From Bradyrhizobium sp. (GTDB lineage: Bacteria > Pseudomonadota > Alphaproteobacteria > Rhizobiales > Xanthobacteraceae), in contig JBQTHN010000005.1 in assembly GCA_052389815.1 (NCBI GenBank), forward strand, positions 112,978-176,977: DNA of 64,000 bases, in the 5' to 3' direction. The notes under the pieces are model-generated. The model was not told the DNA's origin. It saw only the letters and a list, made by a program, of their open reading frames with translations, and made no database searches. Of the stretch, positions 43,853 through 64,000 are shown in pieces. Position numbers and translations under genes: made by a program. Positions within the stretch are counted from its first letter, which is position 1, and each line of letters begins with the position of its first letter.

Positions 43853-43885
43853 TGCTGGCCCATCGCGAAAACCGCGATTCCACGA

Positions 43886-45652: not shown

Positions 45653-45768
45653 TGAAAATCTTTCCCCAAATGATGCCAAGCGCCTTCATCGCTGCCTCAA
45701 GTCCCGGCGGTATCTGTATTCCTTGTGCTCTGCCATGCCTGTGCCCACCCCTGTTTGGTACAGCTCAC

Positions 45769-46311: not shown

Positions 46312-47350
46312 CTGCAATGGGCCGTCTCAACAAGCCGGCAGCCTTGGTTGAGGGGATAATGCCTTCCGCCAACGCGCGATAAACATGAGTCTCGAACCGC
46401 TGAGGCTTTTCCAACCTCGCCGTTTCGCCGTCCGTACTTAGCTCTTCCGGCTCTGACTTAAGCCACGCCCGGGCCGGGGTTCGGAATAGGTTCTTCAAAT
46501 TGGCCTCTGAAATGATTCCGACGTCCTTCAGTCGATATAGCAAGGCCCACATCGATACACCATAAAGGTGTTTGAGCCGAACAAGCTCTTTATAGGCGAA
46601 TGCGGTTCGGCCGGTCCCGACTTCCTCCTTCAGGTGCTCTGCTGGCACCAAGAACGCGCCTGCGAACCGGTCCATCGCCTTTTCAGGTTTGGCTTTCTTG
46701 CATTCGCCGATCAGGGCGTGCGCAAGTTCGTGCGCCAGGGTAAACCTGTTGCGTTCAACGTTGACGTTGCGGCGTACCACGACGCGTATGGGTGGCTTCT
46801 TCGCTGGTCGCTTCACATGGCAGGTCAGCCCATAAAATCCGTCGTGACCGTCGATCTCAATAACCCGCACGTTCCGTTCCTCCAGCAGCGAGGTCATGCT
46901 GGGGATCGGGTCTCCGCCTAGATTCCACTTCTCGCGGAGCCAGGTGGCGCGTTTCTCCGCGTCGTCGAGATCATCGACGTCGACCGGCTTAATTTCATCC
47001 AAATCGCTGGGCTTTTCCGGCAGATCAAGGATGTCCTCGATTGCGAGGTAGCGCTCGATATGGTCGATCACTTCGGCCTCGACCAGCGCGCGCTCTTTTT
47101 CAGACGTGCCAGAGCGCTTGCGAAACTCGACGCCGTCGAGCGCAGTCACCTGATTGCTCATCAGGAAATCCAACGAGACCCCAAGCGCCTGGGCGAGCCC
47201 CACGAGGACGCTCGAACTCGGTAGCATTTCACCCAGCTCGTACTTGTTGATCGCCTGCGGCGTCACCTTCGGGGTCGCCTTCTCCGCCAAGGCCGCCAAC
47301 GACAGTCCGGCCCGCAACCGCGCGAGCCGAAGCCTTTCTCCAAATGCCAT
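46280..47350 (-). CDS. XRE HTH + ImmA/IrrE Zn-metallopeptidase fusion
   Basis: RLRLARLRAGLSLAALAE HTH; RNRFTLAHELAH (HExxH); MDRFAGAFLVP. Confidence 0.9.
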   Translation of the reverse strand: MAFGERLRLARLRAGLSLAALAEKATPKVTPQAINKYELGEMLPSSSVLVGLAQALGVSLDFLMSNQVTALDGVEFRKRSGTSEKERALVEAEVIDHIERYLAIEDILDLPEKPSDLDEIKPVDVDDLDDAEKRATWLREKWNLGGDPIPSMTSLLEERNVRVIEIDGHDGFYGLTCHVKRPAKKPPIRVVVRRNVNVERNRFTLAHELAHALIGECKKAKPEKAMDRFAGAFLVPAEHLKEEVGTGRTAFAYKELVRLKHLYGVSMWALLYRLKDVGIISEANLKNLFRTPARAWLKSEPEELSTDGETARLEKPQRFETHVYRALAEGIIPSTKAAGLLRRPIADVERAVKGQQ

Positions 47351-47401
47351 GATTCCGTGTCTCCCTTCGCGTAGTTGACATTTGTCTTTTTATGTGCAAT
47401 T

Positions 47402-47449
47402 TATCAACCAACGGTTAATATATAGGTCAAAACCTCTAGCATATCAACC
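47402..47449. promoter_or_regulatory. Candidate operator array in the AT-rich divergent promoter
   Basis: TATCAACC-AAC-GGTTAATA imperfect palindrome (47402-47420), a further TATCAACC at 47442-47449, and TTGACA at 47375-47380. Confidence 0.5.
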
Positions 47450-47537
47450 GGAGTGTACCACATCTGGGCACCTTTGAGGCCGGTTAGCCACAAGAAGTGG
47501 TTCCGGCCCGGCCCGCAGATCATGAAGGAGAATCGGC

Positions 47538-47792
47538 ATGTCCGAGACTGCAGAAAAGGTGAAGACGATCACCATCATCGTGGACGGCACCCCGCACGAG
47601 GTGCCGAAAAAGGAGAAGATCACCTACGCCGAGGTCGTGACGCTGGCGTATCCGGACTATCCGCAGCACCCCGAGATCACCTACTCGGTGACCTACACCA
47701 AGGGTCACCACGAGGGCATTCTGCCGCCGGGCGGCAGCGTCGAGGTCAAGGACGGGATGGAGTTCCGTGTTAATCGAACTGGCCAATCATAA
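47538..47792 (+). CDS. Ubiquitin-like (multi-ubiquitin family) protein
   Basis: ITIIVDGTPHEV..ITYAEVVTLAY..YSVTY..LPPGGSVEVKDGMEFRV; C-terminus TGQS. Confidence 0.85.
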   Translation: MSETAEKVKTITIIVDGTPHEVPKKEKITYAEVVTLAYPDYPQHPEITYSVTYTKGHHEGILPPGGSVEVKDGMEFRVNRTGQS

Positions 47793-48942
47793 CGACGACA
47801 TCCGCCGACTCCTCGAAAAGGGCTATGCCCTGAGGTTCGACAGCGGCTATCTGGTCGTGCGCTACATTCCCTACCTGGACGCCAACAAGGCGCTCCAGGT
47901 AGGGGCGATCGTCACCAAGCTCGTGTTCATCGACAAGATGCGCGTCCAGCAACAGGACCACCAAGTATTTTTCGCCGGGTCGGCGCCACACGGCCTCGAT
48001 GGCCAACCCGTCCCCAATCTGGGCGGCGGTGCCGCGTCACTCGCACTGACCAAGACCGATGTCGTGGTCGAGCGAAGCTTCTCGAACAAGCCGCCGCCGG
48101 GCCACTTCCCCGACTTCTTCGCCAAGATCGAGCACTACCTGAACCTCGTCGGCGGGCCGGCGATGAGCCTCCACGGCTTCAATCCCTTCACGTTCCGGGT
48201 TGACCACGACGTGGTCGCCGATTCGGTGTTCAAGTTTCAGGACACCATGACCAGCCGCGCCGAGATCGGCGATCTCGCTGCCGTTTTCAAGAACGAGGTC
48301 ATTGCGATCATCGGCCTCGGTGGCACCGGCTGCTTCGTCCTGGACTTCACGGTCAAGACGCCGGTCCAGGAGATTCGCGGCTTCGACGGCGACTTCTACT
48401 ACGTCCATAACGCCTACCGCTCGCCGGGCCATCTCGACGAGCAGGATCTCGGCAAGGCCAAGGCTGAGGTTTAACAGCGGCGGTACGAAAACTTCCGCAA
48501 GAATCTCAAGCTGGAGAAGAAGTATATCGACCGCTCGTCGGCCGCCGACCTTCAAGGTGTGACCTTTGCGTTCGTCTGCGTCGACAAAGGCTCGGCGCGG
48601 GCAGAGATCTTCGAGCTGCTGATCAGCCTTGGGATTCCCTTCATCGATGTCGGTATGGGTCTGAACCGGAAGGAAGGGCCACTCGCCGGAACGTTGCGCG
48701 CGACCTACTACCCGCCGGACAAGGCGGCGCAAGTCCGCGACATGCAGCTCGCCGAGCTGGCGGACCATCCTGATGATGAATACCGCGCCCAGGTCCAGAT
48801 TTCCGAGCTGAATGCCATGAACGCCTTCCTGGCGGTCATGCGCTACAAGCAGCTGCGGGGATTCTATCTCGACAAGCAGGCGCCCTTTCACATGCTTTTC
48901 GACACCGCCGAGATCAAGCTGTTCCGCCAGGAGGGGCCGTGA
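47767..48942 (+). pseudogene. E2-like (DUF6791) + ThiF/E1 fusion interrupted by an in-frame TAA at 48472-48474
   Basis: IIGLGGTG, FDGD..HNAYR; the reading continues in the same frame after TAA (QRRYENF..FAFVCVD..ISELNAMNA). Confidence 0.85.
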
Positions 48943-49349
48943 ACACCATCAAGCTTGAGCGGGTCCAGTACATCCCTAAGCAGCTCTCCCCCGGCATTCT
49001 CTATGTGACGGAGCGATATTCCGTGGCCGCGCATCTGTGCGCCTGTGGCTGCGGCAACAAGGTGGTAACCCCTCTTGGTCCCGTGGAATGGTCGCTCTCG
49101 GAAAACGGCGACCTGCCGTCGCTCTGGCCGTCGATCGGGAATTGGCAGCTCCCCTGCCGATCCCACTACATCATCAGCCACGGCCAGATTAACTGGGCGG
49201 GCGCCTGGGCGGACGCGCAGATCCTAGCTGGCCGTCGCGCTGAGGAGCAGCAGCGGCAAGCTTATTATGCCGAGAAGTCTCAGTTGGGTACTTTTGCGAA
49301 GATCTGGGATTGGATATTGCGCGCGATACGGAAATTGTTCGGAGGTTGA
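48939..49349 (+). CDS. DUF6527 family putative metal-binding protein
   Basis: HLCACGCG, SLWPSIGNWQLPCRSHY; GTGA overlap with the E1 stop. Confidence 0.85.
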   Translation: MNTIKLERVQYIPKQLSPGILYVTERYSVAAHLCACGCGNKVVTPLGPVEWSLSENGDLPSLWPSIGNWQLPCRSHYIISHGQINWAGAWADAQILAGRRAEEQQRQAYYAEKSQLGTFAKIWDWILRAIRKLFGG

Positions 49350-49450
49350 ACTCCTCAGGCTCAAGACATCAACCGCAGCTCCGGTCTTCGTTGGCGAAAC
49401 TCCAACGACCATCTATCGCGGTCAGGCGCACAACGGAGCCGCTCTATCTC

Positions 49451-49521
49451 GAACGGAAACGCAGCAAAATCAATGGAACTAGTCGATATCCTGTAGCTCA
49501 AAACGGTCTGGTTGCAGATCC
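49451..49521 (+). repeat. Degenerate att-like copy containing a tRNA(CAT) 3'-half fragment
   Basis: GCAGCAAAATCAA...GCTCAAAACGGTCTGGTTGCAG; 54/71 identical to 63487-63557 by hand alignment. Confidence 0.7.
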
Positions 49522-49677
49522 GGATCGGGCTCCGTCGGCCTGGTGGCATCGACGGTTCAACGTTCCGTTCTGAATGAGAGTGGACAAAACGGACCGCGCA
49601 AGCTTTTCCAGCAACAAAGGCGAGCGTCAGCATAGCGCCATCTTGGTGCCGTCCGCTATTTCACAATGCGCTACGCT

Positions 49678-52600
49678 TCAAAGAGCTCTTAACTCGATCG
49701 CGATCTCAAGGTATCTGCAGAACGCATTGGCGAGCTGCATCTGCCTTGGCGTGCGACACTCCGCTTCGAAAAGTCGAGGGGACGCGACGATGAAGCAAAT
49801 GCACTTTGCTCGAGAAGTGGCGACGTTCAGGCGGTTCGCGCTGTAAAGGAATTCCATGCCACGCGGGGCGTCGGAATGGCTTGAGGTCGTCATTGAGTAG
49901 ATGACGATAGGCGCCTCTTGCCCCTGGAATTTATCCACGGTCCCAATGCGTGCACCAGGAATGCGCTCCTGGAGCTCGAATACCTGAGCGTTGTAGGGGG
50001 CGACGATCAGAATATCCTCAAGTCCAATCGATTTCTCTACGCCCTGCCGATCGATCCAAGTGCTGCCGGCATCTAGAATGCTTGAAACGAGGTGTCGAAT
50101 CGCCTCGGCTTCCTCCTTTGCGGAGTTCTGATTACCGGTGTGCTCGATTGGCAGATATCTGAGCCCGGCTCCGCCAAGCCTACCCGTCGACCTGATTTCT
50201 TGCTTTTCAAGTCCTGCGTGCGATCGGAGTCGTCCCTCGTAGAACAGCTCAGAGTTGAAGACGCAGATATCCGGATGCAGCCGCCAGGTCTCCGCCAGGA
50301 ACAGCCCGCGCTCGGGGGGAACGGTCGCGCGTGCTCCGAGGATATGATCGAGCGCCGAGACTGCAACCCCATCAGGGTGGCATCCCTGAATCGGCTGCTC
50401 GAGCTGACGCGGGTCTCCAAGAAGCACGACGCTCTTGGCAGCCTGCGACACGGCAAGAACATCCGCCAACGACATCTGGGCCGCCTCGTCGATGAAAAGC
50501 ACATCTACGCTGAGGTTCGCGTCTGCCCGCGACCAAAAGAACGAGGTCCCACCGCCGACCGCGCATGTCGCGCGAAGAAGATCCAGAGCTTCCTCGTTGC
50601 TTTTCGTCAATCGCAGGGAAGGAAGACTGCTGGTTTCCTTTTCGGAAATCTTGTGAACGCATTGGAGGCACAAATCTGCGGCCGCGGCAGCGGAAATGAC
50701 CTCAGTCAAGAGGTTGCGGATGACCTTGTGACTATTTGCAGTTATTCCGACCCGCTTTCCCTCGCGAACCAGGCTAAGGATCATACGTGCGGCCGTATAT
50801 GTTTTTCCGGCTCCCGGCGGGCCTTGAATCGGAACGACACTCTCATCCAGGGAGACGCCGATACGCTCGGCAGCGGCCAGAGTCGTCTCCCCCGGCCGCA
50901 GCAGCGCCTGTCCTCGCAAGCGAGGGGCCAACCCCAGCAGCAGATCGCGCGCAGCGCGATATTTGCCCGGCCCCTCCATGCCGTTCTCCGCGACGTATTC
51001 TCCGAGGCGAAGAAGAGAACCCGCCTGCTCTGGATGGTCGAACGATTTGTGGGCGAAAACGGCTTCGGGGTGCAAATCGGCGGTATCGCCCCGCTTCTTT
51101 ATGTCGACCGTCCGGTCCTCTTGCGATAGCGTCCACTTCTCCGAAGTGGTCTCCGCCGACGCTCCGCAGCTTGCTTTCCGCACGCACGTCAGTGTCCTGC
51201 TGCACAAACTCGTAGCGATGGATGGGCGCTTTGGCGGTCCCTCCGACGTTTCGGACGAATTTCAAACCGCCGATGCCTGCTCGTTCATGAACAAGATCTT
51301 CGGCCGAAAGGTCGCGGAGTCTGAAGTATTCCCACCAGACGGCCTTACCCTCGCGGCCGTGCCAATCGAGCATGAACGCGAGCAACCACCTTGAGTGCTG
51401 CTCCTTGCTTCGTTGAGTTACGTCGTCGGGTATGCCGTCGAGCAACCGCGAGGCCACGGCTTGCACTCTTGCCAACCAAGCATCACGCTTGGGACTGATC
51501 TCGGCCTCTTTGGGTACCGGCCGTTCGATGGTCTCGCCTACCGCGAGGAGCTCGGTCCGCAAGGATTCCAGCCAGTTCCGGAGAGCCTCCGTAGAGGTGC
51601 AGTCATCGCGATTGTAGCCTTTGATCGCCTCTTTGTGCTCCGTTGGAACGTGGGCGTCATCGGCCGTTTCCAACCGCGCCTGCGTTCTGGCGAGCACGGC
51701 CGCGACCTCCTCCAACGGTACGCTTCGTGCGAACGAATAGAGCGGCTCCAGCTTCTTGATCGAATAACTCTCCACGCTCGCGCGGATGGCGTGGCGTACG
51801 ACCGAATAGAGGTCAACGAAGACCTCCGAGCGAAGAAGATCGTCCAGTTCCCTTTCCCGCGTCGCGTATCGGCCCATCAATCGCTTCAACGCGGCCGGCT
51901 CATAAGGAGCGAAGTGATAGATATGAAGGTCGGGAAAGATTTTGCGTCGCTCTGTGACGAAGTCGATGAAGCGCTCGAACGCGACCCTTTCTTCGTGTCG
52001 CGCGGATGCCCAGTCACCGACGTATCGAGGTAAGTCGTCATCGCCATTGAAGAGGTATCCGAACAGAAACTCCAACCCTCCTTCTCCGACGAAAGGATCA
52101 CCCTCGAAGTCAAAAAAGATATCGCCGGGACAGGGTTCGGGAAGTCTTGAGAGCCCGAAGCCCGGCTTCGGCGGGAGTGCTTCGTAGAGCACTGCGCCCT
52201 GGGTCCGGCCTTCGACCTGTATCCTCGCCTGTTCGCGAACGTTTTCGTAACTGCGAGCAGCACCGCGATCCGGCCGCCACTGCAATGGCAACGGCAACTC
52301 GGCAAGCGCCGCCATAGTCGTCACGCCGTGCCGCTCGAGCTCTCCGATCTGCAATTTACTTATTCCCGCGACGAGCGACATATGATCGTCAGCTCGTCTC
52401 CTTTCGTCGCAGTGCCGGCGCCACCTGCAGATGTCGCAGTGCTCGACGGGTTCGGGATATGCATAGGCCGTGCTCGGAGAAGCGACGGAACGCTCGAGAC
52501 TATTCCTGACGTGCCGATAATAGGCTGAATAGTCTGCGATCCTGTACTCAACCGGAACGAAGTCGGCTGCCGGCGTGACGACGTAGGCCATGGCCGGTCG

Positions 52601-53083
52601 CGTGGCTTGCATTTCCGCGAGCAGGTCGGAGTAAAGGCAAATCTGAAGGACCGTATTTCCTTTGGTTTCCCGCGCGAGCTTCGTGTCGGTCACCTCATAC
52701 GACCAACCGCCGAAGCGGCTCGGCGTATCGACCCGACGCAAGACGTCCGCACGTCCATTCCATCTTCCCGCCTCGAGAGCCCCCTGCACGATGACGGCAT
52801 CACCGCGCTCCATGGCTGATATGGTCGCGGCCACAGCAACACCGTCTACTCCGACGCCGTCCACGACCGTTACGCTTAAGCCGCCGCCCTTGAGATGGTC
52901 AACGTAGCTTCGTTCATGCAGCGCGCCGCGCTCGGCGAGCGTCGCAAGCACCGGGTCCCACACCTTCGGTTTCTGCAGCTGGCCATTGGCCACCTTCAGA
53001 TCAAGTTCCGTCAGATACCGGCAGTTCAGGTGGCCGACCAGATCGCAGGCGCTCAGCTTGATGCTTCCCCCGATGCTCTGCAT
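49678..53083 (-). pseudogene. TM0106-family RecB-like nuclease + SF1 (DNA2/NAM7-like) helicase, frameshifted at ~51125
   Basis: DTKLARETK..QICLY; FFDFEG RNaseH-like segment; GPPGAGKT, IDEAAQM, GDPRQL, DKFQGQE, NVATSRA in a second frame. Confidence 0.82.
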
Positions 53084-53231
53084 GCGCCCACTTGTGTCGG
53101 CTAAGCCGCCCTTCTCGTCCTTTCCGAGTCGCCTTAATCCCAATTCCCTAGGAACTCCTAGGAAATGCACTCGAAAAAGGCGAGTAAGATAGCTTATAGT
53201 CGCGCGGAACGAGTACAAGGGGGCTTGGTCG

Positions 53232-55061
53232 GTGCGCGATAGTTCGGTGGAAAGAGCCAGATGGCTCCGCGATTTGCTGCGTTTTCTGCCCCTCCGTAGC
53301 CAATTCGTCCTCTCGGGCAATACCCGGGACCTTCAGATGCACGAGATTGCTCCAGGCGAGGTGACGGCAACGCCACTATCCAGGGTCCTGCCGGACCGCT
53401 TGAAGGAAGCTGGCTATGCGCGTATCGCAAGCTTCGACCTTCTGAACGGATTTAGAGGGATCGAACCGGCCGACGGAAGCTTCCTGACGCAGTTGGGTCT
53501 GACGCCGACCAACGGAGCGGCCGCCGGCGGCATTGACCTCTTATCGGCCACCCTCGAAAGGCATGTCGGCGCGGAAGGGTTGCCGGTGGCGCTCATCGTC
53601 GATTTCGCGTCGAGGCTGGTCGCGCGAAACGAGGCGCTGTCGCCGGCCGAACACCAGCTTTTCTCTCGGGCTCTAATCCTCTCGCATTCGGCACGCGCGC
53701 GGCCGGCCGGCGAAAGACGCCTCCCCTACTTCAACACGATCGTCTGGATCGTCGACAAGGAGGGGGATCTGCCCGACTGGTTCCTGGTCGGAAACCCGAG
53801 GATACGACACATACCCATCGGACGCCCGGATCACGTGGCGAGAAGAAGCATGATCCGCTCCCTGGTGCGCGGCTTACCAGGCGCGCAGAAGGCGGAGCAG
53901 TGCGAACTGGACAAGTGCACCCAAGCATTCGTGGACGAGACGGAAGGCCTTCTGCTGTTAGATCTAAGCGCGGTCGCGCAGCTCGCCCGCAGCGAAGGAG
54001 TCCAGTTTGATCGGATTGCAGATGCGGTTCGACGGTTCAAGGTCGGTGTGACCGAGGATCCTTGGCGTAAGATCAGTCGCGACAAGATCAGCTCGGGTGA
54101 AGAATTTGTGAGAGGGCGCGTCAAGGGACAGTCGCATGCCGTCACCCATATGCTGGACATCGTCAAGCGCGCGGTTACCGGGATCGGTCAATCCCCTAGA
54201 GGCGGTCGACCAAGAGGTGTCGTCTTTCTCGCGGGGCCGACTGGGGTCGGCAAGACGGAACTCGCGAAGACAATCACAAGTCTGCTGTTCGGTGACGAGA
54301 GCGCCTATATCCGATTCGACATGTCGGAGTTCAGCGCCGAGCATTCGGATCAGCGGCTCATCGGCGCTCCTCCCGGCTACATCGGTTACGACGTCGGCGG
54401 CGAGCTCACAAACGCGATCCGCGAGAAGCCGTTCAGCGTCGTCCTATTCGACGAAATCGAGAAGGCTCACCCGAGAATTCTGGACAAATTCCTGCAGGTT
54501 CTCGACGACGGCGTTCTCACCTCCGGAAGAGGCGATCGCGTCTATTTCTCGGAAGCCTTCATTGTCTTCACGTCGAACTTGGGCATCTACGTGCCGGGGC
54601 CGTCGGGCGAAAGGATCGCCAACGTGACGCCCGAAGAGACGTTCGAAGGGGTAAGGAGAAAAGTCCGAAGCGAGATCGAAAAGCACTTCAAGCAGGTCCT
54701 CAATCGGCCTGAGATACTGAACCGCATCGGAGAGAACGTCATCGTCTTCGACTTCATCCGGCCCGACGTCGCCAACGAGATCTTCGATCATATGGTCAAC
54801 AACCTGCTCAGCGACGTCAAATCGCTAGGCTATGACGTGACACTGACAGAAGGCGCCCGCGAAGGACTTCGAGGATTGTGCTTGGCGGACCTTTCGAACG
54901 GCGGCCGAGGCATCCGCAATCAGGTCGAATCTCACCTCATCAACCCGCTATCGCGGGGCCTTTTCGACAGCGGAGCAGAAGCTGGACGCAGATACAGGAT
55001 CGAAGGGGTCCGCCCCGGTGCATCGACGACGATCGACCTCGTGAGCGAGCACTCTCCATGA
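53232..55061 (+). CDS. AAA+ ATPase with a ClpB-D2-like C-terminal module and a degenerate N-terminal module
   Basis: AGPTGVGKTELAK, RFDMSEF, RLIGAPPGYIGY, LFDEIEKAHP; no Clp N-domain and no Walker A in the N-terminal half. Confidence 0.88.
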   Translation: MRDSSVERARWLRDLLRFLPLRSQFVLSGNTRDLQMHEIAPGEVTATPLSRVLPDRLKEAGYARIASFDLLNGFRGIEPADGSFLTQLGLTPTNGAAAGGIDLLSATLERHVGAEGLPVALIVDFASRLVARNEALSPAEHQLFSRALILSHSARARPAGERRLPYFNTIVWIVDKEGDLPDWFLVGNPRIRHIPIGRPDHVARRSMIRSLVRGLPGAQKAEQCELDKCTQAFVDETEGLLLLDLSAVAQLARSEGVQFDRIADAVRRFKVGVTEDPWRKISRDKISSGEEFVRGRVKGQSHAVTHMLDIVKRAVTGIGQSPRGGRPRGVVFLAGPTGVGKTELAKTITSLLFGDESAYIRFDMSEFSAEHSDQRLIGAPPGYIGYDVGGELTNAIREKPFSVVLFDEIEKAHPRILDKFLQVLDDGVLTSGRGDRVYFSEAFIVFTSNLGIYVPGPSGERIANVTPEETFEGVRRKVRSEIEKHFKQVLNRPEILNRIGENVIVFDFIRPDVANEIFDHMVNNLLSDVKSLGYDVTLTEGAREGLRGLCLADLSNGGRGIRNQVESHLINPLSRGLFDSGAEAGRRYRIEGVRPGASTTIDLVSEHSP

Positions 55062-55711
55062 CCACGACAGTCAATCTGTCCCGCATCCATTTCCCCGTCA
55101 CGACTTTGGGACCCGGCCGAAGGATCGGGATATGGTTTCAAGGCTGTTCGATCCGCTGCCCGGGATGCATCTCCATGGATACGTGGACACACGGGCGAGG
55201 GACGACGACTATAGCTGAGGTCGTCGACGCTATTTCACCTTGGCTTTCGACGGCAGACGGAATCACGGTCTCAGGCGGGGAACCTTTCGACCAGCGCGAG
55301 GCTTTGTTCGAGCTTCTGGCGCGGCTCCGAGCTCTAACGGCGGCGGACATCCTCGTCTTTACCGGCTATCCTTGGATCACAATCTCCGAAGCGATCTCTT
55401 CCCGGCCGCCTCTGATCGACGCGATCGTCACCGAGCCATTCGATATCGATGAGAGGCAAACTCTGGCGCTTCGCGGCAGCGACAATCAGCAACTGCACAT
55501 GATGACCCCTTTGGGTCGGGCTCGGTTCGAGAGCTTCGACCGCACTATCGACGAAAGCGATCGCAGCTTCGACGTGATGTTCGACGAAAACGGAGATGTC
55601 TGGCTTGCGGGCATTCCCGCTCGCGGCGATTTCCGGCGCCTGCGAAATATCCTCGAAGACGGCGGGTCGACACTTGGAATTTCGGAAGATAAGCGATTCC
55701 CATCTCACTAG
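55058..55711 (+). CDS. Short radical SAM protein (NrdG-activase-like, 4Fe-4S)
   Basis: TTLGPGRRIGIWFQGCSIRCPGC (CxxxCxxC), ITVSGGEP, RGSDNQ; ATGA overlap with the AAA stop. Confidence 0.9.
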   Translation: MTTTVNLSRIHFPVTTLGPGRRIGIWFQGCSIRCPGCISMDTWTHGRGTTTIAEVVDAISPWLSTADGITVSGGEPFDQREALFELLARLRALTAADILVFTGYPWITISEAISSRPPLIDAIVTEPFDIDERQTLALRGSDNQQLHMMTPLGRARFESFDRTIDESDRSFDVMFDENGDVWLAGIPARGDFRRLRNILEDGGSTLGISEDKRFPSH

Positions 55712-55721
55712 AATTTTGCTG

Positions 55722-58700
55722 ATGATCAGACTTTGCCCGAACTGCAATACCGAACGGCCTGTCACTGAAATCTTCTGTGAAGGCACGTTGAATGGCCAAA
55801 ACTGTGGCTGGGACCTGTCGGCGGTCGATATAACGTCGCCTGGAGCACCCGGACCGAGGCCGAATCCTCCAGAGGTTGCTCCGAGCCAGCCGACATGCCG
55901 GAACGGTCATCAGGGATCTCCCGGGGATCTCATCTGCAGCGTGTGTGGCGAGCCGATCATCGAACCGGGCGAGACACCCTCACCGATCGACACCGAGCCT
56001 GGGCCCGAGCCCGAGCCGGAGGCCGAAACAATAGTAGACGGTTGGCGTCTACAGGACCGGATCGTCTCATCGAGCGTCGTCCGCGAGCGCTTCGTCGCCA
56101 CGCGCGACTCCGACGGACGGCGTGGAATACTCACACTTTACGCACCCGGCTCGGAGCCGGATCAAGCGATCTACGATCTGCTCTCGAAGCTCCCCCGAGA
56201 TCACGTTTCCGAGCTCTTCGCCACCGGTCGTTGGCAAGACCGTGCCTACGACGTCGCGGAGGAATTCAGCGGCGGCACGTTGGCGGATTTCGCCATCGAT
56301 CCTGTCGATCAGGCGGCAATAAGGAAGCTGGTCGGCGAGCTCGCGCAGGCCGTTCATGCACTCGCCGAAGCCGGATTGCGGCACAGGGATCTGCGGCCTT
56401 CGGTCATCTTCATGCGCTCGAGGGACCCGCTGGACCTCGTCATCGGAGGGTTTGGATCCGCACGACTTTCCGAGTTCGATCTGGACATCGTGTCCCCTCT
56501 CGAGACCACCCGTTACATGGCTCCGGAAGCGATCGCCGGTGGCGTCGCTCCGGCTTCCGACTGGTGGAGCGTGGGAATGATCTTGCTGGAAAAGATCACC
56601 CAAGGCGCGTGTTTCGAAGGTGTCAACGAACAGGCCTTTCTGATCCACGTTCTCACCAACGGCGTACACCTTCCTGAAAACCTGGACGAACGGATCGACA
56701 CCTTGCTGCGCGGCCTTCTGGCACGTGACAGACGCCAGCGGTGGCAGTGGACGGAAGTTCAGGCGTGGCTGCAGGGTGAGACGGTATCCGCTCCCGCAGC
56801 CGAAACGCCAGGCGTTACCGAGGGCCGCATTTCGATCTCGCTAGGTGATAAGCAATATCGCTCTGCAAACATGTTCGCTTTGGCGGCGGCGGAAGCGGCG
56901 AATTGGGAGCAGGCCAAAGCTCTTGTTCTCAGAGGCGCAGTCGCGAGTTGGGCTTCCGAGGCCGGCTTCGAACCGGCAATGTCGGCGGGCCTGCGGCAAA
57001 TCCTGCGAGCCGAGGATCTTCAGGAGGACTTGAAGCTCTCCATCTCCCTGAAGACGCTTAATGCTTCGATGCCCCTGATCGTCAGAGGCAATATCGTCAC
57101 GCCGGGTTGGCTGCTCGATCATCCGACCGACGGTTATAGCCTGATCACCGGTCCGGCACCCGACCTGCTTCGGAAGATCGATCCGGACGACTGGCTCTGG
57201 CGTCTCAAGGTCCGGTCGGACACAGTTCGAAAGCGACTCGACCAACTGGAAATCGCGGTCGACGAGGATGCCCTGCGCGTCCACCTTCTGTCGACGTCGA
57301 TGGCCCGCCTAGTCGCTCTCTGGGAGGAAAAGCGAAGGCTTTTTCCTGACACGGACCATGCCGGCGTAGCTGCGCTGACCGAACGCCGCCTTTCGGCCGA
57401 AGAAGACCTGGTCATCCTGCTCAGCGCGATGTCGAACCAGTTCCGCTCCGTCGCCGAGGTTATCGAAGAAGCGACAAAGGAAGCGTCGACCGCGGGACTT
57501 GGCGATTTTTCGCCCGAGAAAGCTACAGCTCTTCTCGCCCGTCCGCGTCGCGAAATCTACGAGACGATCGACGAGCGTATTCGGAACTTTGCAAGATGCG
57601 GCATCAAGGAAGCCGACGAATGGGCGGATCAGTTTCGCCTCGACAGGCGGATGTCCATAGGGCGCGCTCTCGCCCTCCTCTCCGTGCCGGCTGAAAGGTG
57701 GAGACCGCTTCCAAAGCAAGGCTACGTATCCACGATCCTGGATTTCTTCGCCAAGCGCATATCGGGTGGGGTCCTACGGGGACCACTGACGCGGATGCTC
57801 ATCGGCAAATCGGCCCGGATCGATCTCACCGAACTCGACACCTCCAGGGTACCGGCGGCGCAAATTCTCGATCAACTGCTCGGTCGGACGAACCGCATTG
57901 TGAATGTCGATCCCGCAGCCTTCGCCGACGACGACGGCTTGGAGCGAAGGTTGCGGTCGCTGCACTCTCACGCGTTGCTCTACAAACGCGACACCGGCAT
58001 CGATGGCCTGTATATGGGATTTCCATTTCTCATCATGCGCGATAGCCGGCCGACCGCGAGACCGCGGATCGCGCCGGTGCTGCTGTGGCCGATGCGCGTC
58101 AATCCCGAAGTGGGAAACCGCGGTCACATCACTCTGGGATTTGGACGCGAAAGAAATCCCGATACAGAGATCGAACACGTCGTCATCAATCCCGCCCTCG
58201 AAGGTATTGTAGGTATCCCAGAAGCAAGACGATGGCAGGAAGCGGCGAACGAGCTTCTTACCCATGCAAGCGTGTCCGTCCAGGCGGTAATGGATGCCTT
58301 TAGCCGGTTGGCCCAGCCAGCCGGCAATGAACTGGTAGCTCTTCCTGGCAAGGACGTCACAGTGGGCTCGCAAGAGCGCCAGCTCGTGCCGGCGGCCGTG
58401 CTCTTCCATCTGGCGTTCATGGGGCAAGCGGTAATGAAAGACCTCGAGACGCTCCGAGGGTCACCGCCGACGGCGACGGCGCTCGAGGCCGCACTGCGTC
58501 TGAACGAACAGCAGGTGACGCCTTCATCGCCGCAAGTGAAGGAGGTCGACCGATACTTCACTGCCGACAGCGATCCTTCACAGGAGGCGGCCGTGATCGA
58601 AGCGCGTCAGGCTCCGGGGTTGGTGATCGAAGGACCGCCCGGCACGGGCAAGAGCCAGACGATTGTCAATATGGTGGCGGACGCCATCGGCACAGGAAAA

Positions 58701-61700
58701 TCACTCCTCGTCGTTTGCCAGAAGCAAGCCGCGCTCGAAGTCGTGCGGAAGCGTTTAGAGAAGGAACGTCTGGCGGATCGCTTCGTCATGATCACCGACG
58801 TCAATCGCGATCGCGAGCCGACCGTCAGTGCGGTCCGTTCGCAGGTGCAAGCATTGCACAACCTGCCTCCCGGAAGGACCCCGGCCTGGAAGCGAGAACG
58901 CGAGCGACTGGCGGTGCGCATCGAGACGCTGGAGGCAGAGCTGGATCGCCGCCAAACTGCGCTTCACTCCGTGGACGATCGGACGGGATTGTCATATCGG
59001 GCGCTACTGGGCGAGCTATTGGAACTCGAAGAAGGCAGTCCGAAGCCCATCGATGTTCCTGAACTCCGACCTTTACTTTCGGATCTGCATCCCACAGACG
59101 TCGTGAGCATCGAAGAGAATTGCGGCCCATTGGCGAAATTCTGGCTGCCGGCCAAATTCGAGGACAATCCCCTTTCCGCTCTCAAGCCGTTCAACCCCGA
59201 TCGCGGAACGGCAGCCGCCCTCGCCTTGCATCTGCAAGGGTTTTTGGAGGTGGACGCACGGCGCGAAGCGACCGATGTGGAGACATCGGATTGCCTGAAA
59301 ATATCGGATTCGATGGCCTTGCAGACGTGGCTCATCGAAGCGGACGATCTGCGCTTTATTAGCGCTTCTGTATGCTCGAATCTCGCTCGATTGCGTCCGC
59401 TGTTCCGGAGCGCGGATGGCGGGGCTTCGCAAGCTATGCACGTGCTCGACGGGTTACTACAGATCAAAGAGATATTCTCGTCGCTCGACGGTCCATCCTA
59501 CAAACCGAACTTTTCCTCAAAGCTCGTCGGTTTGAACGGGGAAGAGTTGCGGTCCATCGCGGAACTCGCGGACCGAGTTCGTTCGCCGGGAAGCGGCCTA
59601 CGATGGATGAACCCGCTACATTGGATGCGAAAGCGCCGTGTGCAAGGCTTCCTTTCATCATTGCAGCTCCCGCAAGATATCCATGGAGTCAGCTCGCTTT
59701 ATTACGCGGCCGAGCTTGAGCTGGCCGTGCGCGGACCGAGACGCGAACTGGCGGAATACTTTATGATCCTTTTCGGCCGAGCCCCCAATCTTGATGTGTC
59801 GCCTGGAAAGCTCGCCGATTTCGCCGAAAGCATTCATTCGTTTCTCGCCGGACTAAGCGGTCACAATTCGCTCATCGATCGGTGTCCGAGCCTGGCCGAT
59901 CTCGAAAGAGCCGTCGCGACCGGAAGAATCGAAGAACTCGCCTCATTCTTTGAACGAGGCGATCGAGCGCTCCGAAGGCATGAGGCGAGAGAGGAAAGCC
60001 GCGCCTCGCTGAACCGGCTCAGGACCTACTTCGACGAACTCTGGCTCGGATCGAGACGCTCGGCGATAGAGAATGGACGCTCGAACGCGAGCGCCGTTGC
60101 CCAGATCGTGCAGGCCTTACCGATGCTCACCAACTACCAGGAATTCCGGCTTCGATCCGCGCGCCTCGACGACAAGGAGCGTGCCATCTTCACCATTCTC
60201 AGGTCCAGGGAATCCGAGTTGTCGAACTTACCGACTGACGACCTAGATTCCTGTATTCGCGCCACGATAGGGCGCGAGGCTCGTCTGGAATGGAAAGCGT
60301 CAATGGAATACCAAAATCCAGACGTACTGTTCGACGGCAATGAGGTCGAGACGAAGGTAAAGTCACTGGCGGAAGCCGACACGCAGATCCGGCACTACAA
60401 CAGAGAGCTTCTCGTCCAAGGTATAGATGCCGGAAAAGTGCGTCCGACATCCGAATGGGATGCGATCACAAGACTGCGCGGCCCGAGAGCACTGCGATTG
60501 CGCGAATTCATCGATCGCTCCGTTCCGCTCGGTCTCCTCGCTCTCCGCCCGGTCTGGCTGATGACGCCGGACGTCGCCAGCCGCGTGCTGCAACCTCGAG
60601 CCGGGCTCTTCGATACCGTCATTTTCGACGAGGCTTCACAGATGCCGGTGGAATATGCCCTGCCATCCCTGTTCCGGAGCAAGCTTGTCGTCGTCAGCGG
60701 CGACGAAAAGCAGATGCCACCAACCTCCTTCTTCGCGAGCAAGGTCGAAAACGACGAAGCGGCGATCTTCGACGGTGAAGAACCCGAAGAAGGGGCGACA
60801 GAAGAGGAGCGCGAGGCGTTCGCCGAGACCTGGAATCGACGTGAGATTAAGGATTGTCCCGACCTTCTTCAGCTTGCCCGTTCGGTGCTCCGGACCCGTA
60901 CTCTGCAGGTTCATTACCGATCGAAGTATCGGGAGCTCATTTCCTTCTCGAACGCATCGTTCTACGCCAATGGCCTCAGCGTCCCCGTACGCCATCCCGA
61001 AGAAACCATTCGAAAGCTCAAGCCCATCGAAGTGGTCCGTTCGGAGGGCACGTACAAGAGCCAGACGAACCAGAAGGAAGCGGCCGATGTCGTGGAATAC
61101 CTCTCCGAGCTTTGGGATGATCCTTCACCTCCATCGATCGGGGTCGTTACGTTCAACCGCAAGCAGGCCGATGCCATCGAAGATGCTTTGGAAGATCGTG
61201 CCGAGAACGATGAGGCATTTCGCGACGCATTGATGCGCGAGCGCGAGCGTACCGAGAATGGCGAGGATATGGGCTTCTTCGTCAAGAACGTGGAGAACGT
61301 GCAAGGCGACGAGCGTGACGTCATCGTCTTCTCGACGACATTCGGTCGCAACGAGCATGGCACTTTCCGCAAGAGCTTCGGCGCGCTGGGGCACGCAGGC
61401 GGCGAACGGCGCCTAAACGTCGCTGTAACGCGTGCCCGAGAGAAGGTGGTCATCGTCACGTCCATGCCGATATCAGAGATATCGGATTTATTGACGAGAC
61501 GGAGCGGTCCCAGGGTTCCACGCGACTATCTGCAAGGCTACCTCGAATATGCCAGGACCGTCTCCGATGGCTTAGGACAGTCGGGCAAGACTCTCTTGGA
61601 GAGGATGGTGACTGAACAGCATGCCCATCACGAAGAGGGCAATCACGAGGACGACGGTTTCACCAAATCCGTCGAAGCCTTCCTGGAGGCGAATGGCTGG

Positions 61701-61982
61701 AAGCCCAGCAGGGCCCGCGACGGCGGCGCATTCAGCATCGATTTTGCGGTGACCGATCCCCGGACCGGTCTCTACGCGATAGGCGTGGAATGCGATGCAC
61801 CACGCCATCGATTGCTGGAGAGGGCTCGCGCCCGCGAGATCTGGCGTCCCAAGGTGTTGGGAAGAGCCGTCCCTTACGTGCACCGGGTTTCGTCGTATGC
61901 TTGGACTCACGCCGGAGACGCTGAACGACTGCGGCTCAAGAATGCCGTAGAAAACGCGCTCCGTGGGGGAGAATTGCAATGA
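55722..61982 (+). CDS. 2086-aa fusion: Zn ribbons + kinase-like domain + DUF4011-like + SF1 helicase + C-terminal restriction-endonuclease-like domain
   Basis: CPNC and CSVC ribbons; HRDLRPS, GFGS, YMAPE; LYMGFPFL..APVLLWP..NPAL; GPPGTGKSQT, FDEASQM, VQGDERD, RLNVAVTRAR; IDFAV..GVECD. Confidence 0.88.
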   Translation: MIRLCPNCNTERPVTEIFCEGTLNGQNCGWDLSAVDITSPGAPGPRPNPPEVAPSQPTCRNGHQGSPGDLICSVCGEPIIEPGETPSPIDTEPGPEPEPEAETIVDGWRLQDRIVSSSVVRERFVATRDSDGRRGILTLYAPGSEPDQAIYDLLSKLPRDHVSELFATGRWQDRAYDVAEEFSGGTLADFAIDPVDQAAIRKLVGELAQAVHALAEAGLRHRDLRPSVIFMRSRDPLDLVIGGFGSARLSEFDLDIVSPLETTRYMAPEAIAGGVAPASDWWSVGMILLEKITQGACFEGVNEQAFLIHVLTNGVHLPENLDERIDTLLRGLLARDRRQRWQWTEVQAWLQGETVSAPAAETPGVTEGRISISLGDKQYRSANMFALAAAEAANWEQAKALVLRGAVASWASEAGFEPAMSAGLRQILRAEDLQEDLKLSISLKTLNASMPLIVRGNIVTPGWLLDHPTDGYSLITGPAPDLLRKIDPDDWLWRLKVRSDTVRKRLDQLEIAVDEDALRVHLLSTSMARLVALWEEKRRLFPDTDHAGVAALTERRLSAEEDLVILLSAMSNQFRSVAEVIEEATKEASTAGLGDFSPEKATALLARPRREIYETIDERIRNFARCGIKEADEWADQFRLDRRMSIGRALALLSVPAERWRPLPKQGYVSTILDFFAKRISGGVLRGPLTRMLIGKSARIDLTELDTSRVPAAQILDQLLGRTNRIVNVDPAAFADDDGLERRLRSLHSHALLYKRDTGIDGLYMGFPFLIMRDSRPTARPRIAPVLLWPMRVNPEVGNRGHITLGFGRERNPDTEIEHVVINPALEGIVGIPEARRWQEAANELLTHASVSVQAVMDAFSRLAQPAGNELVALPGKDVTVGSQERQLVPAAVLFHLAFMGQAVMKDLETLRGSPPTATALEAALRLNEQQVTPSSPQVKEVDRYFTADSDPSQEAAVIEARQAPGLVIEGPPGTGKSQTIVNMVADAIGTGKSLLVVCQKQAALEVVRKRLEKERLADRFVMITDVNRDREPTVSAVRSQVQALHNLPPGRTPAWKRERERLAVRIETLEAELDRRQTALHSVDDRTGLSYRALLGELLELEEGSPKPIDVPELRPLLSDLHPTDVVSIEENCGPLAKFWLPAKFEDNPLSALKPFNPDRGTAAALALHLQGFLEVDARREATDVETSDCLKISDSMALQTWLIEADDLRFISASVCSNLARLRPLFRSADGGASQAMHVLDGLLQIKEIFSSLDGPSYKPNFSSKLVGLNGEELRSIAELADRVRSPGSGLRWMNPLHWMRKRRVQGFLSSLQLPQDIHGVSSLYYAAELELAVRGPRRELAEYFMILFGRAPNLDVSPGKLADFAESIHSFLAGLSGHNSLIDRCPSLADLERAVATGRIEELASFFERGDRALRRHEAREESRASLNRLRTYFDELWLGSRRSAIENGRSNASAVAQIVQALPMLTNYQEFRLRSARLDDKERAIFTILRSRESELSNLPTDDLDSCIRATIGREARLEWKASMEYQNPDVLFDGNEVETKVKSLAEADTQIRHYNRELLVQGIDAGKVRPTSEWDAITRLRGPRALRLREFIDRSVPLGLLALRPVWLMTPDVASRVLQPRAGLFDTVIFDEASQMPVEYALPSLFRSKLVVVSGDEKQMPPTSFFASKVENDEAAIFDGEEPEEGATEEEREAFAETWNRREIKDCPDLLQLARSVLRTRTLQVHYRSKYRELISFSNASFYANGLSVPVRHPEETIRKLKPIEVVRSEGTYKSQTNQKEAADVVEYLSELWDDPSPPSIGVVTFNRKQADAIEDALEDRAENDEAFRDALMRERERTENGEDMGFFVKNVENVQGDERDVIVFSTTFGRNEHGTFRKSFGALGHAGGERRLNVAVTRAREKVVIVTSMPISEISDLLTRRSGPRVPRDYLQGYLEYARTVSDGLGQSGKTLLERMVTEQHAHHEEGNHEDDGFTKSVEAFLEANGWKPSRARDGGAFSIDFAVTDPRTGLYAIGVECDAPRHRLLERARAREIWRPKVLGRAVPYVHRVSSYAWTHAGDAERLRLKNAVENALRGGELQ

Positions 61983-63334
61983 GCGGACCCAAAGCATTCA
62001 GGATCGTTACCCGCGCCGAAATCATCGCCATCTGTCGTCGCAGTCTCGCCCGGCTCGACGCCGCGATAGAAACCTGGGCTTCCGCCGGTAGACGCAATGG
62101 GACGATCGAGCAGCAGGACATCGAAAAGGTCACAGCGCGACGGGACGAGCTTCGTCGCTTGCTCGACGCCGACCGCTTCGTCGAATTACAGAAACAAGTC
62201 GCGGGCGAGATCGCCTTCCTCCAAGCGGACTCCGAACGCCGGGTCGAAAGGGCCGCCGAAATCGTGGCCCGCTCGAAGCGCGATTTAAGACGTTCCAAAA
62301 CCGCAGCCGAGGCGTTGCTGCATAGATTGCATGTTCTGAAAGTCGATATACCCGCCGATATCCGAAGCGAGCTCAGTGGATCGACCGCATCTTCAGAGCG
62401 CCTGGAAGCGGCCATGGCCAAGGCGCTGATGTTGCTTCCTTCTCAGGAGGCACCAGATGCCACGACAGATCGGCAACGGCAGCTTGCCGCCAAGCTCAGC
62501 GCTGGGGAGCGCCGCGAAACGTTGCAAGAGTGGCTCTTCCGACAACCGCGGGAGATGGAGGATCCGGCCTTGGCGCGCGTCGATGCCCTTCTCGGCGAGC
62601 TGCGCGGGCTTGGGATCGATTCCGGCCCATTTTCGGCCCACGTTGCGGCTCTGGAAGCAGAGCCACCGGCGAGAAGATCGCTAATCGCGGATAGTCTTCT
62701 GTTGGACCTGGCTACGGCCGTCAAGGATGGCCGAGCCCGTACACGACTGGTGAACCAGCTTCGCGAGCGACGCGCTGAACTCTCGGAGATGAAGTCACCG
62801 GAGGCGGCATCGCTGCTGGCCGAAATCGATAGTGCGCTTGCGATACCTTCGGCCAGTGACGAGCAAGAACTCGTCAAGCGAGCCGACTTTCTCATTGAGG
62901 AAGAATTCAAGGCGATGGCGGCCGAAGAGCGCAGGCGTGCTGTGCTCGAGGGACTCGCCAGCCTAGGGTACGAGGTGTCCGAGGGAATGGCGACCGCTTG
63001 GGTACAGAACGGTAAGATCGTTCTGCGTAAAGCAGCCAATCCTGGCTATGGAGTGGAGCTTTCGGGCGGATCGAAATCGGATCTTCTCCAGGTTAGGGCC
63101 GTGGGCATTGGCAGTTCGGCCGAACCTCGTGATGCCAACCGTGACCGGGACATGGAAACGATTTGGTGCGGCGAGTTCGATCGGCTGAAGGGATTGGTCG
63201 CAAAAGCAGGTGGAAATGTTTCGATCGAGTCCGCTCGACCTGTTGGCCAGTTCCCTCTAAAGATCGTGTCAGATCCGGGTGCAAGCCATGAGGCGGTGGT
63301 GGTCGAAAGATCACATCGATCACTACCTTACTAG
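61979..63334 (+). CDS. Helical/coiled-coil protein with an alpha/beta C-terminus, last gene of the AAA-rSAM operon
   Basis: MSGPKAFRIVTRAE..; ATGA overlap with the helicase stop; no catalytic motif recognised. Confidence 0.8.
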   Translation: MSGPKAFRIVTRAEIIAICRRSLARLDAAIETWASAGRRNGTIEQQDIEKVTARRDELRRLLDADRFVELQKQVAGEIAFLQADSERRVERAAEIVARSKRDLRRSKTAAEALLHRLHVLKVDIPADIRSELSGSTASSERLEAAMAKALMLLPSQEAPDATTDRQRQLAAKLSAGERRETLQEWLFRQPREMEDPALARVDALLGELRGLGIDSGPFSAHVAALEAEPPARRSLIADSLLLDLATAVKDGRARTRLVNQLRERRAELSEMKSPEAASLLAEIDSALAIPSASDEQELVKRADFLIEEEFKAMAAEERRRAVLEGLASLGYEVSEGMATAWVQNGKIVLRKAANPGYGVELSGGSKSDLLQVRAVGIGSSAEPRDANRDRDMETIWCGEFDRLKGLVAKAGGNVSIESARPVGQFPLKIVSDPGASHEAVVVERSHRSLPY

Positions 63335-63486
63335 CCAGCTTTGACTAGGCCGCTGGGTCGATGGATCGCGATTCGCACAAAACTTGTGCGGGCCCGGCCA
63401 CACTGACAGCGAGGGGCTTGTCGTCGGCCGCACCAGTTTCGCACCAGAAACGACCTCATCAAAGCGTAACGAACGCGATCGAACTC

Positions 63487-63578
63487 AAACGAAAATGCAG
63501 CAAAATCAACGAAGGCGATCGATAGTCTGCCGCTCATAACGGTCTGGTTGCAGGTTCAAGCCCCGCGCAGCGCTCCAT
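63487..63578 (+). repeat. att-like site: element arm plus degenerate 3' half of tRNA(CAT), probably Ile2/Met type
   Basis: CCG-CTCATAA-CGG anticodon arm, GCAGG-TTCAAG T-arm and decayed 3' end ..CTCCA; no 5' half present. Confidence 0.75.
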
Positions 63579-63604: not shown

Positions 63605-64000
63605 CTATTTCAGGCGGCATTTCTCCTTCGCCTCCTCATCATCCCGATCTATGGGGAGCTGGCAATCCAATCTGTTTGCAAGTGAGCGAAGTTTCTTATT
63701 CAGTTCGGGTAAGGACCCGGTCTTTCGTCCTGCATGGGCAGCAATGAACGCCGGATACAACGGAGCGTCAGGAACTTGGAAACCGCCGCGAGCAGGCAAC
63801 AAATACCGCGATGGATAAGGCCATTCAGGGGTGAGAATGGACAAGTACACGTCCTGTGAAACAAGACGCCGAATAAACTTCAGTGCCAACTCTTTCTTCA
63901 ATCCAGACAATCTTGCGTCGATTGCCAAGGCATCGACCCAACCAACACCGGCCTCCGGGGCAGAAACGCGAAAGCTCGGCAACGCGCGCACGGCAATTTC
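63605..64000 (-). CDS. C-terminal part of a solute-binding-fold protein, possibly thiaminase I-like; runs off the window
   Basis: WVDALAID..LALKFI..PSRYLLPAR; the frame is open to position 64000. Confidence 0.5.
   Translation of the reverse strand, partial: EIAVRALPSFRVSAPEAGVGWVDALAIDARLSGLKKELALKFIRRLVSQDVYLSILTPEWPYPSRYLLPARGGFQVPDAPLYPAFIAAHAGRKTGSLPELNKKLRSLANRLDCQLPIDRDDEEAKEKCRLK

Follow-up and report, generated by a model that had tools for sequence, protein, structure and literature searches.

Serial integration at one tRNA or gene end with decay of the older element, i.e. tandem accretion, is known from systems such as ICESt1 and ICESt3 of Streptococcus thermophilus, and the integrase-less segments bounded by attachment (att) sites that can travel with an integrative and conjugative element (ICE) are termed cis-mobilizable elements (CIMEs; reviewed in PMC5704250). 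Island arrays at tRNA and tmRNA genes carry an arm followed by a tRNA 3′ fragment at their ends, with several such fragments per locus and the older copies decayed (TIGER/Islander, PMC12424338; tRNA fragments, PMC9897764). Bi- and tripartite (polypartite) ICEs, which have att sites for more than one integrase specificity, occur in Bradyrhizobium, where tRNA-Gln is a known ICE target (Weisberg 2022, PMC9174649), and integrated mobile elements harbour defence hotspots, i.e. variable regions next to the integrase that are packed with defence-like genes (PMC10201445). Features of each of these systems recur in a 64,000-nt stretch of Bradyrhizobium sp. DNA (assembly GCA_052389815.1, contig JBQTHN010000005.1, positions 112,978 to 176,977; hereafter the window), in which two imperfect direct repeats, referred to as copy 1 and copy 2, bracket a 14-kb block of genes within the cargo region of an ICE. 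In our reading, to which we assign a probability of about 75 %, both repeats are fossil scars of islands that integrated at a tRNA-Met(CAT) gene and accreted in tandem, and that are now carried as cargo by an ICE using tRNA-Gln. The locus is thus a new example of a known pattern, fossil att scars within ICE cargo, and is ordinary in kind.

The first-pass annotation of this DNA had reported a 71-bp imperfect direct repeat with an offset of 14,036 bp, which we confirmed, 54 of the 71 positions agreeing between 49451–49521 and 63487–63557. Ungapped extension gave 65/86 identical positions between 49432–49517 and 63468–63553 at the same spacing, and this pair is the longest direct repeat across 44–64 kb. 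When copy 2 was compared with the remaining window by BLAST, the match had an E value of 5.9e-12 and the runner-up one of 0.42. Common to both copies are an exact 13-mer, GCAGCAAAATCAA, and an exact 16-mer, AACGGTCTGGTTGCAG, with 28 nt between them; neither motif has a further occurrence within the window, nor is there a third copy of the core. ARAGORN and Rfam reported no tRNA or partial tRNA in either copy, even at E values up to 10, as expected since both are fragments, and the tRNA origin therefore had to come from comparison with related loci.

The att family was defined by a motif scan (GCAGCAAAATCAA/AACGGTCTGGTTGCAG at fixed spacing) of one genome per bacterial species, which returned 25 loci, every one of them in Bradyrhizobium (25 species); this places the window in Bradyrhizobium rather than in Mesorhizobium. 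The aligned loci have a site of ~150 nt in common, i.e. a conserved arm of ~100 nt, the core and a tRNA 3′ end. The consensus arm reads ACCGCACCAGTTTCGCACCAGAAAC...GCAGCAAAATCAACGAAG..., then CCGCTCATAACGGTCTGGTTGCAG, and in 19 of the 25 loci the site runs into a perfect tRNA-Met 3′ end, GTTCGAGTCCTGCCGGGCCCACCA. The genes flanking the 25 copies are hypervariable on either side; a common neighbour was looked for among them and none was found, and the open reading frames (ORFs) 3′ of the copies are, as judged by eye, ordinary metabolic or membrane genes. The intact target gene is present in one locus (L033, 7573–7648) as a 76-nt tRNA with the anticodon CAT, whose positions 28–76 are exactly the att core plus the 3′ end. 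This locus also harbours an arm-type copy 4.1 kb off and another 49-nt tRNA fragment, and is therefore an array. The tRNA was labelled Met by ARAGORN; its G1-C72, C4-G69 and C5-G68 pairs are what we take to be traits of a lysidine tRNA-Ile2 rather than of an elongator tRNA-Met.

Judged by its sequence, copy 2 (63428–63577, plus strand) appears to be a typical member of this family, agreeing with the consensus at 133 of 150 positions, within the family range of 121–143. Its element (P) arm (63428–63528) leads a match of 91 % over 139 nt to the consensus (E 2e-53), and its core (63529–63557) is identical to the L033 tRNA over all 29 nt, i.e. tRNA-Met(CAT) positions 28–56, from the anticodon stem to the T-loop. 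The tRNA 3′ end that follows (63554–63577; T-arm, acceptor strand and CCA) is of the right length and closes with CCA, and is decayed: only 16 of its 24 positions are identical to the L033 tRNA, and the pairing of the acceptor strand with the tRNA 5′ strand has been lost. Similarly worn 3′ ends occur in three other loci (L018, L035 and L039). The arm also holds the direct repeat CGCACCAG-TTT-CGCACCAGAAAC, which is likely to be an arm-type integrase binding site; the CGCACCAGAAAC-type motif is found again on the P′ side of the intact junction described below.

Copy 1 (49432–49517, plus strand) appears instead as a worn and truncated member, consisting of ~70 nt of arm and the 16-nt core AACGGTCTGGTTGCAG. 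It matches the consensus at 79 % over 87 nt including the core (E 5.6e-17) and at 89 of 150 positions overall, with likeness limited to the proximal ~70 nt of the arm and with the distal arm and the CGCACCAG repeats missing. The anticodon loop is mutated from CAT to CAA, the tRNA identity is reduced to 16 nt, and nothing tRNA-like follows past GCAG, i.e. the tRNA 3′ end is absent. Since the element arm precedes the tRNA 3′ part, both copies are of the attR type, and they belong to a lambda-type integration system with specificity for tRNA-Met. This layout upholds the earlier proposal that the repeats are att copies derived from a tRNA(CAT), as does the Bradyrhizobium tRNA-Met itself, which matches copy 2 over 29 nt as expected of the host gene. 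The more specific claim that each copy joins an arm to a tRNA 3′ fragment is true of copy 2 (29/29, then 16/24), and for copy 1 it extends no further than the 16-mer and the mutated loop.

An undecayed junction for comparison is found in B. yuanmingense (L063), where a copy of the block with 85 % nucleotide identity ends in the same arm and core and in a perfect tRNA 3′ end (att junction at 11402–11552). Seven bases past this junction lies the stop codon of a gene on the opposite strand that encodes a 419-aa protein of the Phage_integrase family, and the 3′ end of this gene contains two further CGCACCAGAAAC sites. The L063 site is an internal array junction, i.e. the attR of one island followed by the P′ arm and integrase of the next, and the adjoining gene identifies the integrase family that uses these att sites.

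Nothing of this second half remains in the window. Neither a homologue of the L063 integrase nor one of the 442-aa integrase described below was detected there by tblastn (nothing below E 0.2), and the window contains no P′-side repeats right of copy 2, no tRNA-Met 5′ half and no intact tRNA gene. Where a functional island or CIME would have a second complete att, or an attL with an intact tRNA, there is the truncated copy 1, and where a cognate tyrosine integrase would be encoded, six non-recombinase ORFs fill 97.5 % of the block. The absence of an integrase from the block, as first annotated, thus extends to the whole window, and one does occur ~4.3 kb past its right end. Two proteins encoded next to copy 2 were considered as integrases and rejected: p451 (451 aa) is a helical protein without a fold match, and p431 (431 aa) is a thiaminase-I-like binding protein.

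The end of the transferred unit lies to the right of both copies. Five sequences (L001, L002, L003, L005 and L006) are mutually 99.99 % identical from the window-equivalent position 51979 to the 5′ end of a tRNA-Gln, a span that includes copy 2 and 6 kb more. This boundary tRNA is an intact tRNA-Gln(TTG) on the minus strand (L001 17594–17668, corresponding to ~69.57–69.65 kb of the window), ~5.6 kb right of the window end. Past it, identity falls to 78–85 % in an orthologous acyl-CoA dehydrogenase gene, followed by different genes, and the boundary is common to at least five chromosomal backgrounds. As the identity runs on to tRNA-Gln, the transferred unit ends there and not at 49.5 or 63.6 kb; at neither copy does the identity between hosts stop. 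The suggestion that the ICE ends near 49.5 kb therefore had to be abandoned. Consistent linkage is also seen for the gene next to copy 2, as exact p431 adjoins p451 and the block in 10/10 places shown, and adjoins the gene of the 442-aa protein in all nine places whose contig extends that far. According to exact-protein look-ups, the ICE DNA is ~99.9 % identical in roughly 300 assembly blocks, and near-identity across at least five Bradyrhizobium backgrounds indicates a recent and wide spread of the ICE. These blocks cover activated-sludge, wastewater, biofilm and freshwater metagenomes as well as several single-organism runs.

The 442-aa gene (L001 15970–17298) is located ~4.3–5.3 kb right of the window and ~300 bp from the tRNA-Gln 3′ end. 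Its product has no sequence match in Pfam, NCBIfam or the PDB and belongs to a family of >1,800 members of ~430 aa, all labelled hypothetical, with the invariant C-terminal pattern CRHGG...SGH...Y. Its AlphaFold2 (AF2) model (predicted local distance difference test, pLDDT, 74.6) matched full-length lambda integrase (1z1b) in Foldseek with an E value of 4e-9, followed by Tn1549 Int, XerA, IntI and Cre; tyrosine recombinases made up 48 of the 50 chains listed. Homologues at 87 % and 81 % identity also adjoin tRNA-Gln, in two other contexts (L061 and L068). The 442-aa protein is thus the predicted tyrosine integrase of the ICE, as judged from its modelled fold, and its position agrees with the architecture of alpha-proteobacterial ICEs, in which the integrase is located beyond the ParB side, i.e. 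here to the right. With the boundary and this predicted integrase at tRNA-Gln, the two tRNA-Met scars lie inside the ICE; the core at tRNA-Gln is unrelated in sequence to that at tRNA-Met. Two copies of GAATTTCCAAATGCG between the stop codon of the 442-aa gene and tRNA-Gln are possibly arm sites.

The two integration systems are also found together in B. vignae (L020, 348–1357), where a tRNA-Met-type attR has directly on its inner side a pseudogene that resembles the 442-aa gene and is accompanied by a tRNA-Gln 3′ fragment. Here the systems are nested in the reverse order, and their mixing is therefore not unique to the ICE studied here. This homologue had been considered as a tRNA-Met integrase and was rejected, being a pseudogene with a tRNA-Gln fragment of its own.

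The block between the scars was thought at first to hold only a TM0106-type gene and an AAA–radical-SAM pair, a description that leaves out proteins of 2,100 and 451 aa filling 7.7 of the 14 kb. The TM0106-type nuclease-helicase gene, on the minus strand, is split into a RecB-like nuclease part of the TM0106 family (50843–53143; PD-(D/E)XK plus RNase_H_2; TIGR03491 with 237 bits at a cutoff of 97, and Pfam) and a superfamily 1 (SF1) helicase part (49678–51207; AAA_11/AAA_12, MkoA-like, by domain and profile matches). Divergent from it, on the plus strand, is an operon encoding a ClpB/ClpV-like AAA+ ATPase with a single AAA_2 module and D2-small (53232–55061; PADLOC candidate PDC-M37B, E 9e-29), an NrdG-like radical-SAM activase (55058–55711; Fer4_12, below equivalog cut-offs and with no PADLOC match), a giant protein of 2,100 aa (55674–61982) that combines a Ser/Thr kinase, DUF4011, an SF1 helicase and an MTES_1575 restriction endonuclease, and finally p451 (61979–63334). 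The giant protein matches PADLOC PDC-S37 (E 1e-146) and Hhe (E 5e-73), and scores below the NCBIfam cut-offs for ProA (504 bits vs 1500) and Hhe (349 vs 2000); it thus resembles the Hhe/ProA/Mokosh defence helicase families without belonging to them. For p451, there is no match in Pfam, NCBIfam or PADLOC, and no fold match at E < 0.3 for its AF2 model (pLDDT 72.6); it has >700 homologues, those with an organism name being without exception from Bradyrhizobium.

The nuclease and helicase parts lie in different frames and overlap by 365 nt (50843–51207) in every ICE copy seen, and gene calls give the nuclease part a length of 766 or 746 aa throughout these copies. As L063 and L065 encode a fused, intact orthologue of 1135 aa, the frame change is likely a fixed frameshift. 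Breaks also affect p451 and the giant kinase-helicase gene in GCA_054056435.1.

Together, these genes form a conserved five-gene cluster (49675–63344), i.e. the TM0106-type gene divergent from the AAA–radical-SAM–kinase-helicase–p451 operon, which may be regarded as a candidate defence system, represented in PADLOC by candidate families only (PDC-M37B and PDC-S37). Relatives with 80–85 % nucleotide identity are present in at least five other Bradyrhizobium contexts (L062–L067). Among five other contexts, only L063 has the att arm, and in the remaining ones the cluster is accompanied by a Bil operon, insertion sequence elements or unrelated genes. Homology reaches the left edge at 49675 in L067 and the right edge at 63336–63344 in L063, L065 and L067, and L062 and L064 retain only 52799/53068–63327. 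The left edge thus coincides with the stop codon of the helicase part, and the right one falls just beyond that of p451; as the edges are gene ends and not the repeats, the cluster is a unit in its own right. Under the earlier proposal, related genomes would be expected to break at the repeats, and the relatives break at 49675 and 63336–63344 instead.

From these observations we infer the following history, beginning with islands of the tRNA-Met family that would have integrated successively at one tRNA by lambda-type site-specific integration, each leaving an arm, the core and a tRNA 3′ end at its far end. Two cargo modules in succession would have their far ends at the two scars in direct order, i.e. 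a first module running from SRAP through SIR2 to the Bub-type operon and ending at copy 1, and a second one, the 14-kb nuclease-helicase/AAA–radical-SAM–kinase-helicase cluster, ending at copy 2. Tandem integration at one tRNA, as suggested in the first-pass annotation, has precisely this signature, two attR-type copies in direct order, and would here have been followed by decay. The older island would have lost the stretch from the middle of the junction core to the helicase gene, comprising the tRNA end, P′ arm and integrase; likewise, the left module would have lost its attL, so that the near ends of both modules are gone. The distal part of the array, with its worn tRNA end, may then have become cargo in the variable, integrase-proximal region of the tRNA-Gln ICE, by integration into a tRNA-like pseudo-site in the ICE, by exchange with a chromosomal array, or by replacement of an older tRNA-Met integration module with the tRNA-Gln module. 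Since copy 1 is cut inside the core and the tRNA end of copy 2 is decayed, the scars would be fossils rather than working sites, and the block would move with the ICE, by means of the ICE's own divergent tyrosine integrase, and not via the repeats.

Several points weigh against this reading. The ICE holds no attL-type site or tRNA-like 5′ half at the start of the array, leaving the capture route a conjecture. The left end of the ICE, expected to bear a tRNA-Gln 3′ repeat, was not reached, no such repeat being found within the window or ~5.6 kb to its left, and backbone and integrase are treated as one element because the contigs are continuous and the gene order is the one usual for ICEs. Furthermore, copy 2 has an arm no more worn than those adjoining perfect tRNA ends, and if a 102-kb metagenome contig from the Joint Genome Institute (JGI) collection (L004) is real, copy 2 would have taken part in a recent recombination and would not be a dead fossil. 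Up to 63557, L004 does not differ from the window; it then runs into GAGTCCTGCCGGGCCCACCA, a perfect tRNA-Met 3′ end, followed by 62 kb of ordinary chromosome; its arm is 100 % that of the ICE while the ICE's own 3′ end has decayed, so the junction must be recent. Either copy 2 and a tRNA-Met site have exchanged DNA, or the junction is an assembly chimera formed via the 29–40 nt shared with resident att sites. If the former, copy 2 might be a working site at which the integrase of a resident tRNA-Met island recombines the ICE with the host tRNA-Met locus. This explanation accounts for the position of the L004 break (63557/63558, inside the core), for the arm that is 91 % identical to the consensus and for the retained CGCACCAG repeats, and polypartite ICEs with several att sites are known from Bradyrhizobium and Mesorhizobium (PMC9174649). 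We nevertheless consider it unlikely: its evidence is one metagenome contig, L004, a search of the JGI metagenome contigs for the reciprocal junction (a tRNA-Met 5′ half joined to the ICE flank) gave 0 matches, P′ arm sites right of copy 2 and a cognate integrase are missing from the window, the other contigs read, about 60, all have the tRNA-Gln arrangement, and the site is missing from a related ICE. It is somewhat more doubtful still that copy 2 serves as a live, portable half-site for the integrases of resident tRNA-Met islands, with L004 as the product of such an event; if so, a tRNA-Gln ICE would gain two alternative anchors, or a split form, without encoding a second integrase.

The other explanations fare worse than fossil scars in ICE cargo. 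Had the block been a CIME-like cassette, mobilisable in cis or in trans and excised by recombination between copy 1 and copy 2, its bracketing by att-derived direct repeats, its lack of integrase and transfer genes and the presence of the cluster in several genomic contexts would be readily explained. However, the two sites are both attR-type, the distal arm and the right half of the core are missing from copy 1, and the cluster edges in the relatives are not the repeats. The junction that a precise deletion of the block would leave (copy 1 arm plus GTTC...) had 0 matches in the JGI metagenome contigs, and no deletion or circle joint was present in the Logan contigs of 9 runs (3 isolate, 6 metagenome), in which both repeats were crossed; the block was in place in about 60/60 contigs read around three marker genes. 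These contigs therefore offer no evidence of the 14-kb circle, the empty site or the mobilisation in trans that had been envisaged, and we regard such a cassette as very improbable. Even less credit can be given to the idea that the ICE ends at copy 1 in a tRNA(CAT), with the intact copy and integrase to the left and the block as an older chromosomal island. Although the attR-type scars are oriented correctly for a tRNA to the left, and L004, if real, has ICE DNA ending at a tRNA-Met attR, the identity between host species continues through both repeats to tRNA-Gln, the gene order trb...traG...rlx...repA...ParB...cargo...integrase puts the integrase end on the right, and copy 1 is more decayed than copy 2, the opposite of what is expected of an end in current use. 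The intact tRNA(CAT) and integrase predicted to the left were not found in the ~5.6 kb preceding the window, which hold TetR and RND efflux cargo. Finally, the modest identity of the two copies (76 %) is all that would speak for a chance or low-complexity origin of their likeness, which can practically be dismissed in view of the E value of 6e-12 within the window and of the independent 25-genome consensus, matched by copy 2 (E 2e-53) as well as by copy 1 (E 6e-17).

Two apparent irregularities in the run contigs were set aside. A joint in run X16 at which the sequence 'goes back' was rejected as a sign of a circle, being merely copy 2 mapping onto copy 1, and an apparent lack of 47.8–63.5 kb in run X3 was discounted, as only 63 % of that run was read.

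Polypartite ICEs of Mesorhizobium were reportedly described by Haskett in 2016. Such ICEs encode all the integrases they need and sit split over the chromosome; in contrast, there is no second integrase in this window, the ICE is unsplit in every contig except one, and no symbiosis genes are present in the part of it that was examined. A CIME keeps an attL and an attR that are recognised by the integrase of the neighbouring ICE (PMC5704250), whereas the two sites described here are attR-type, one of them in truncated form. The scars (Met) and the carrying ICE (Gln) also differ in integrase family and tRNA, the ICE integrase being located at tRNA-Gln and belonging to the other family, and the array lies inside the ICE and not beside it. 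Unlike the fragments in island arrays, which the scars resemble in their make-up, those described here are away from the tRNA locus and have been carried into another mobile element. The likeness to defence hotspots lies in the SIR2/PDC-S65 gene, the Bub operon and the kinase-helicase-restriction endonuclease gene, and in the prokaryotic Argonaute (pAgo) and AbiEii genes of a related ICE; compared with the systems of such hotspots (PMC10201445), the five-gene cluster is a candidate, with matches to PADLOC candidate families and sub-cut-off ProA and Hhe scores.

It follows from our reading that the defence cargo of an ICE can be built from pieces of island arrays belonging to another integration system, and that a mobile element need not end at the att-like repeats it contains, which matters wherever ICEs are delimited by repeats only. 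The by-products of the analysis may outweigh the scars in usefulness, i.e. a lambda-Int-like integrase family with >1,800 members that goes unrecognised by Pfam and NCBIfam and is found beside tRNA-Gln in 3/3 contexts, a defined att site of ~150 nt for the Bradyrhizobium tRNA-Met island family, and a conserved five-gene candidate defence cluster.

The region between the Bub-type operon and the integrase has different contents in the related ICE mentioned above (L068 1–9335, integrase 81 % identical), where BubE is separated from the integrase by Piwi/pAgo, a PD-(D/E)XK nuclease, a helix-turn-helix (HTH) protein and AbiEii. No tRNA-Met-type scar was found in L068, and the scars are therefore not conserved in the ICE family; as its slot holds other defence cargo, the integrase-proximal region is a variable, defence-rich cargo slot. 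In the window, the 3′ part of the p431 gene (63605–64000, minus strand), which encodes a thiaminase-I-like solute-binding protein and runs past the window end, is also ICE cargo and not chromosome.

The left cargo module (38718–49349), which extends up to copy 1, comprises genes for SRAP, a UvrD-like helicase, a SEC-C protein, SIR2 (PDC-S65), DUF3368 (PDC-S70) and an HTH-M78 regulator, and a Bub-type ubiquitin-like operon. Within 43886–46317, the SIR2 protein is a full-length match to the PADLOC candidate PDC-S65 (E 1e-217) and is encoded next to the DUF3368/PDC-S70 and HTH-M78 genes. The Bub-type operon (47538–49349) consists of Multi_ubiq, DUF6791-ThiF, a 127-aa ORF and BubE/DUF6527; in its E1-like gene, the ThiF domain breaks off after 60 residues, and the gene looks truncated or split.

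The backbone of the ICE (1461–38167) is wholly on the minus strand and of the standard alpha-proteobacterial ICE type, with trbB to trbI, traG, a DUF3363 relaxase, SLT, TraF, DUF2840 and RepA, as well as DUF736, Toprim, a Sno helicase, a ParB-like protein and a nuclease. Long metagenome contigs stop within it at ~22.1–23.5 kb (L002 and L006 at 22081, L004 at 23456), which points to a repeat, or to a spot that varies among strains, between repA and the DUF736 gene.

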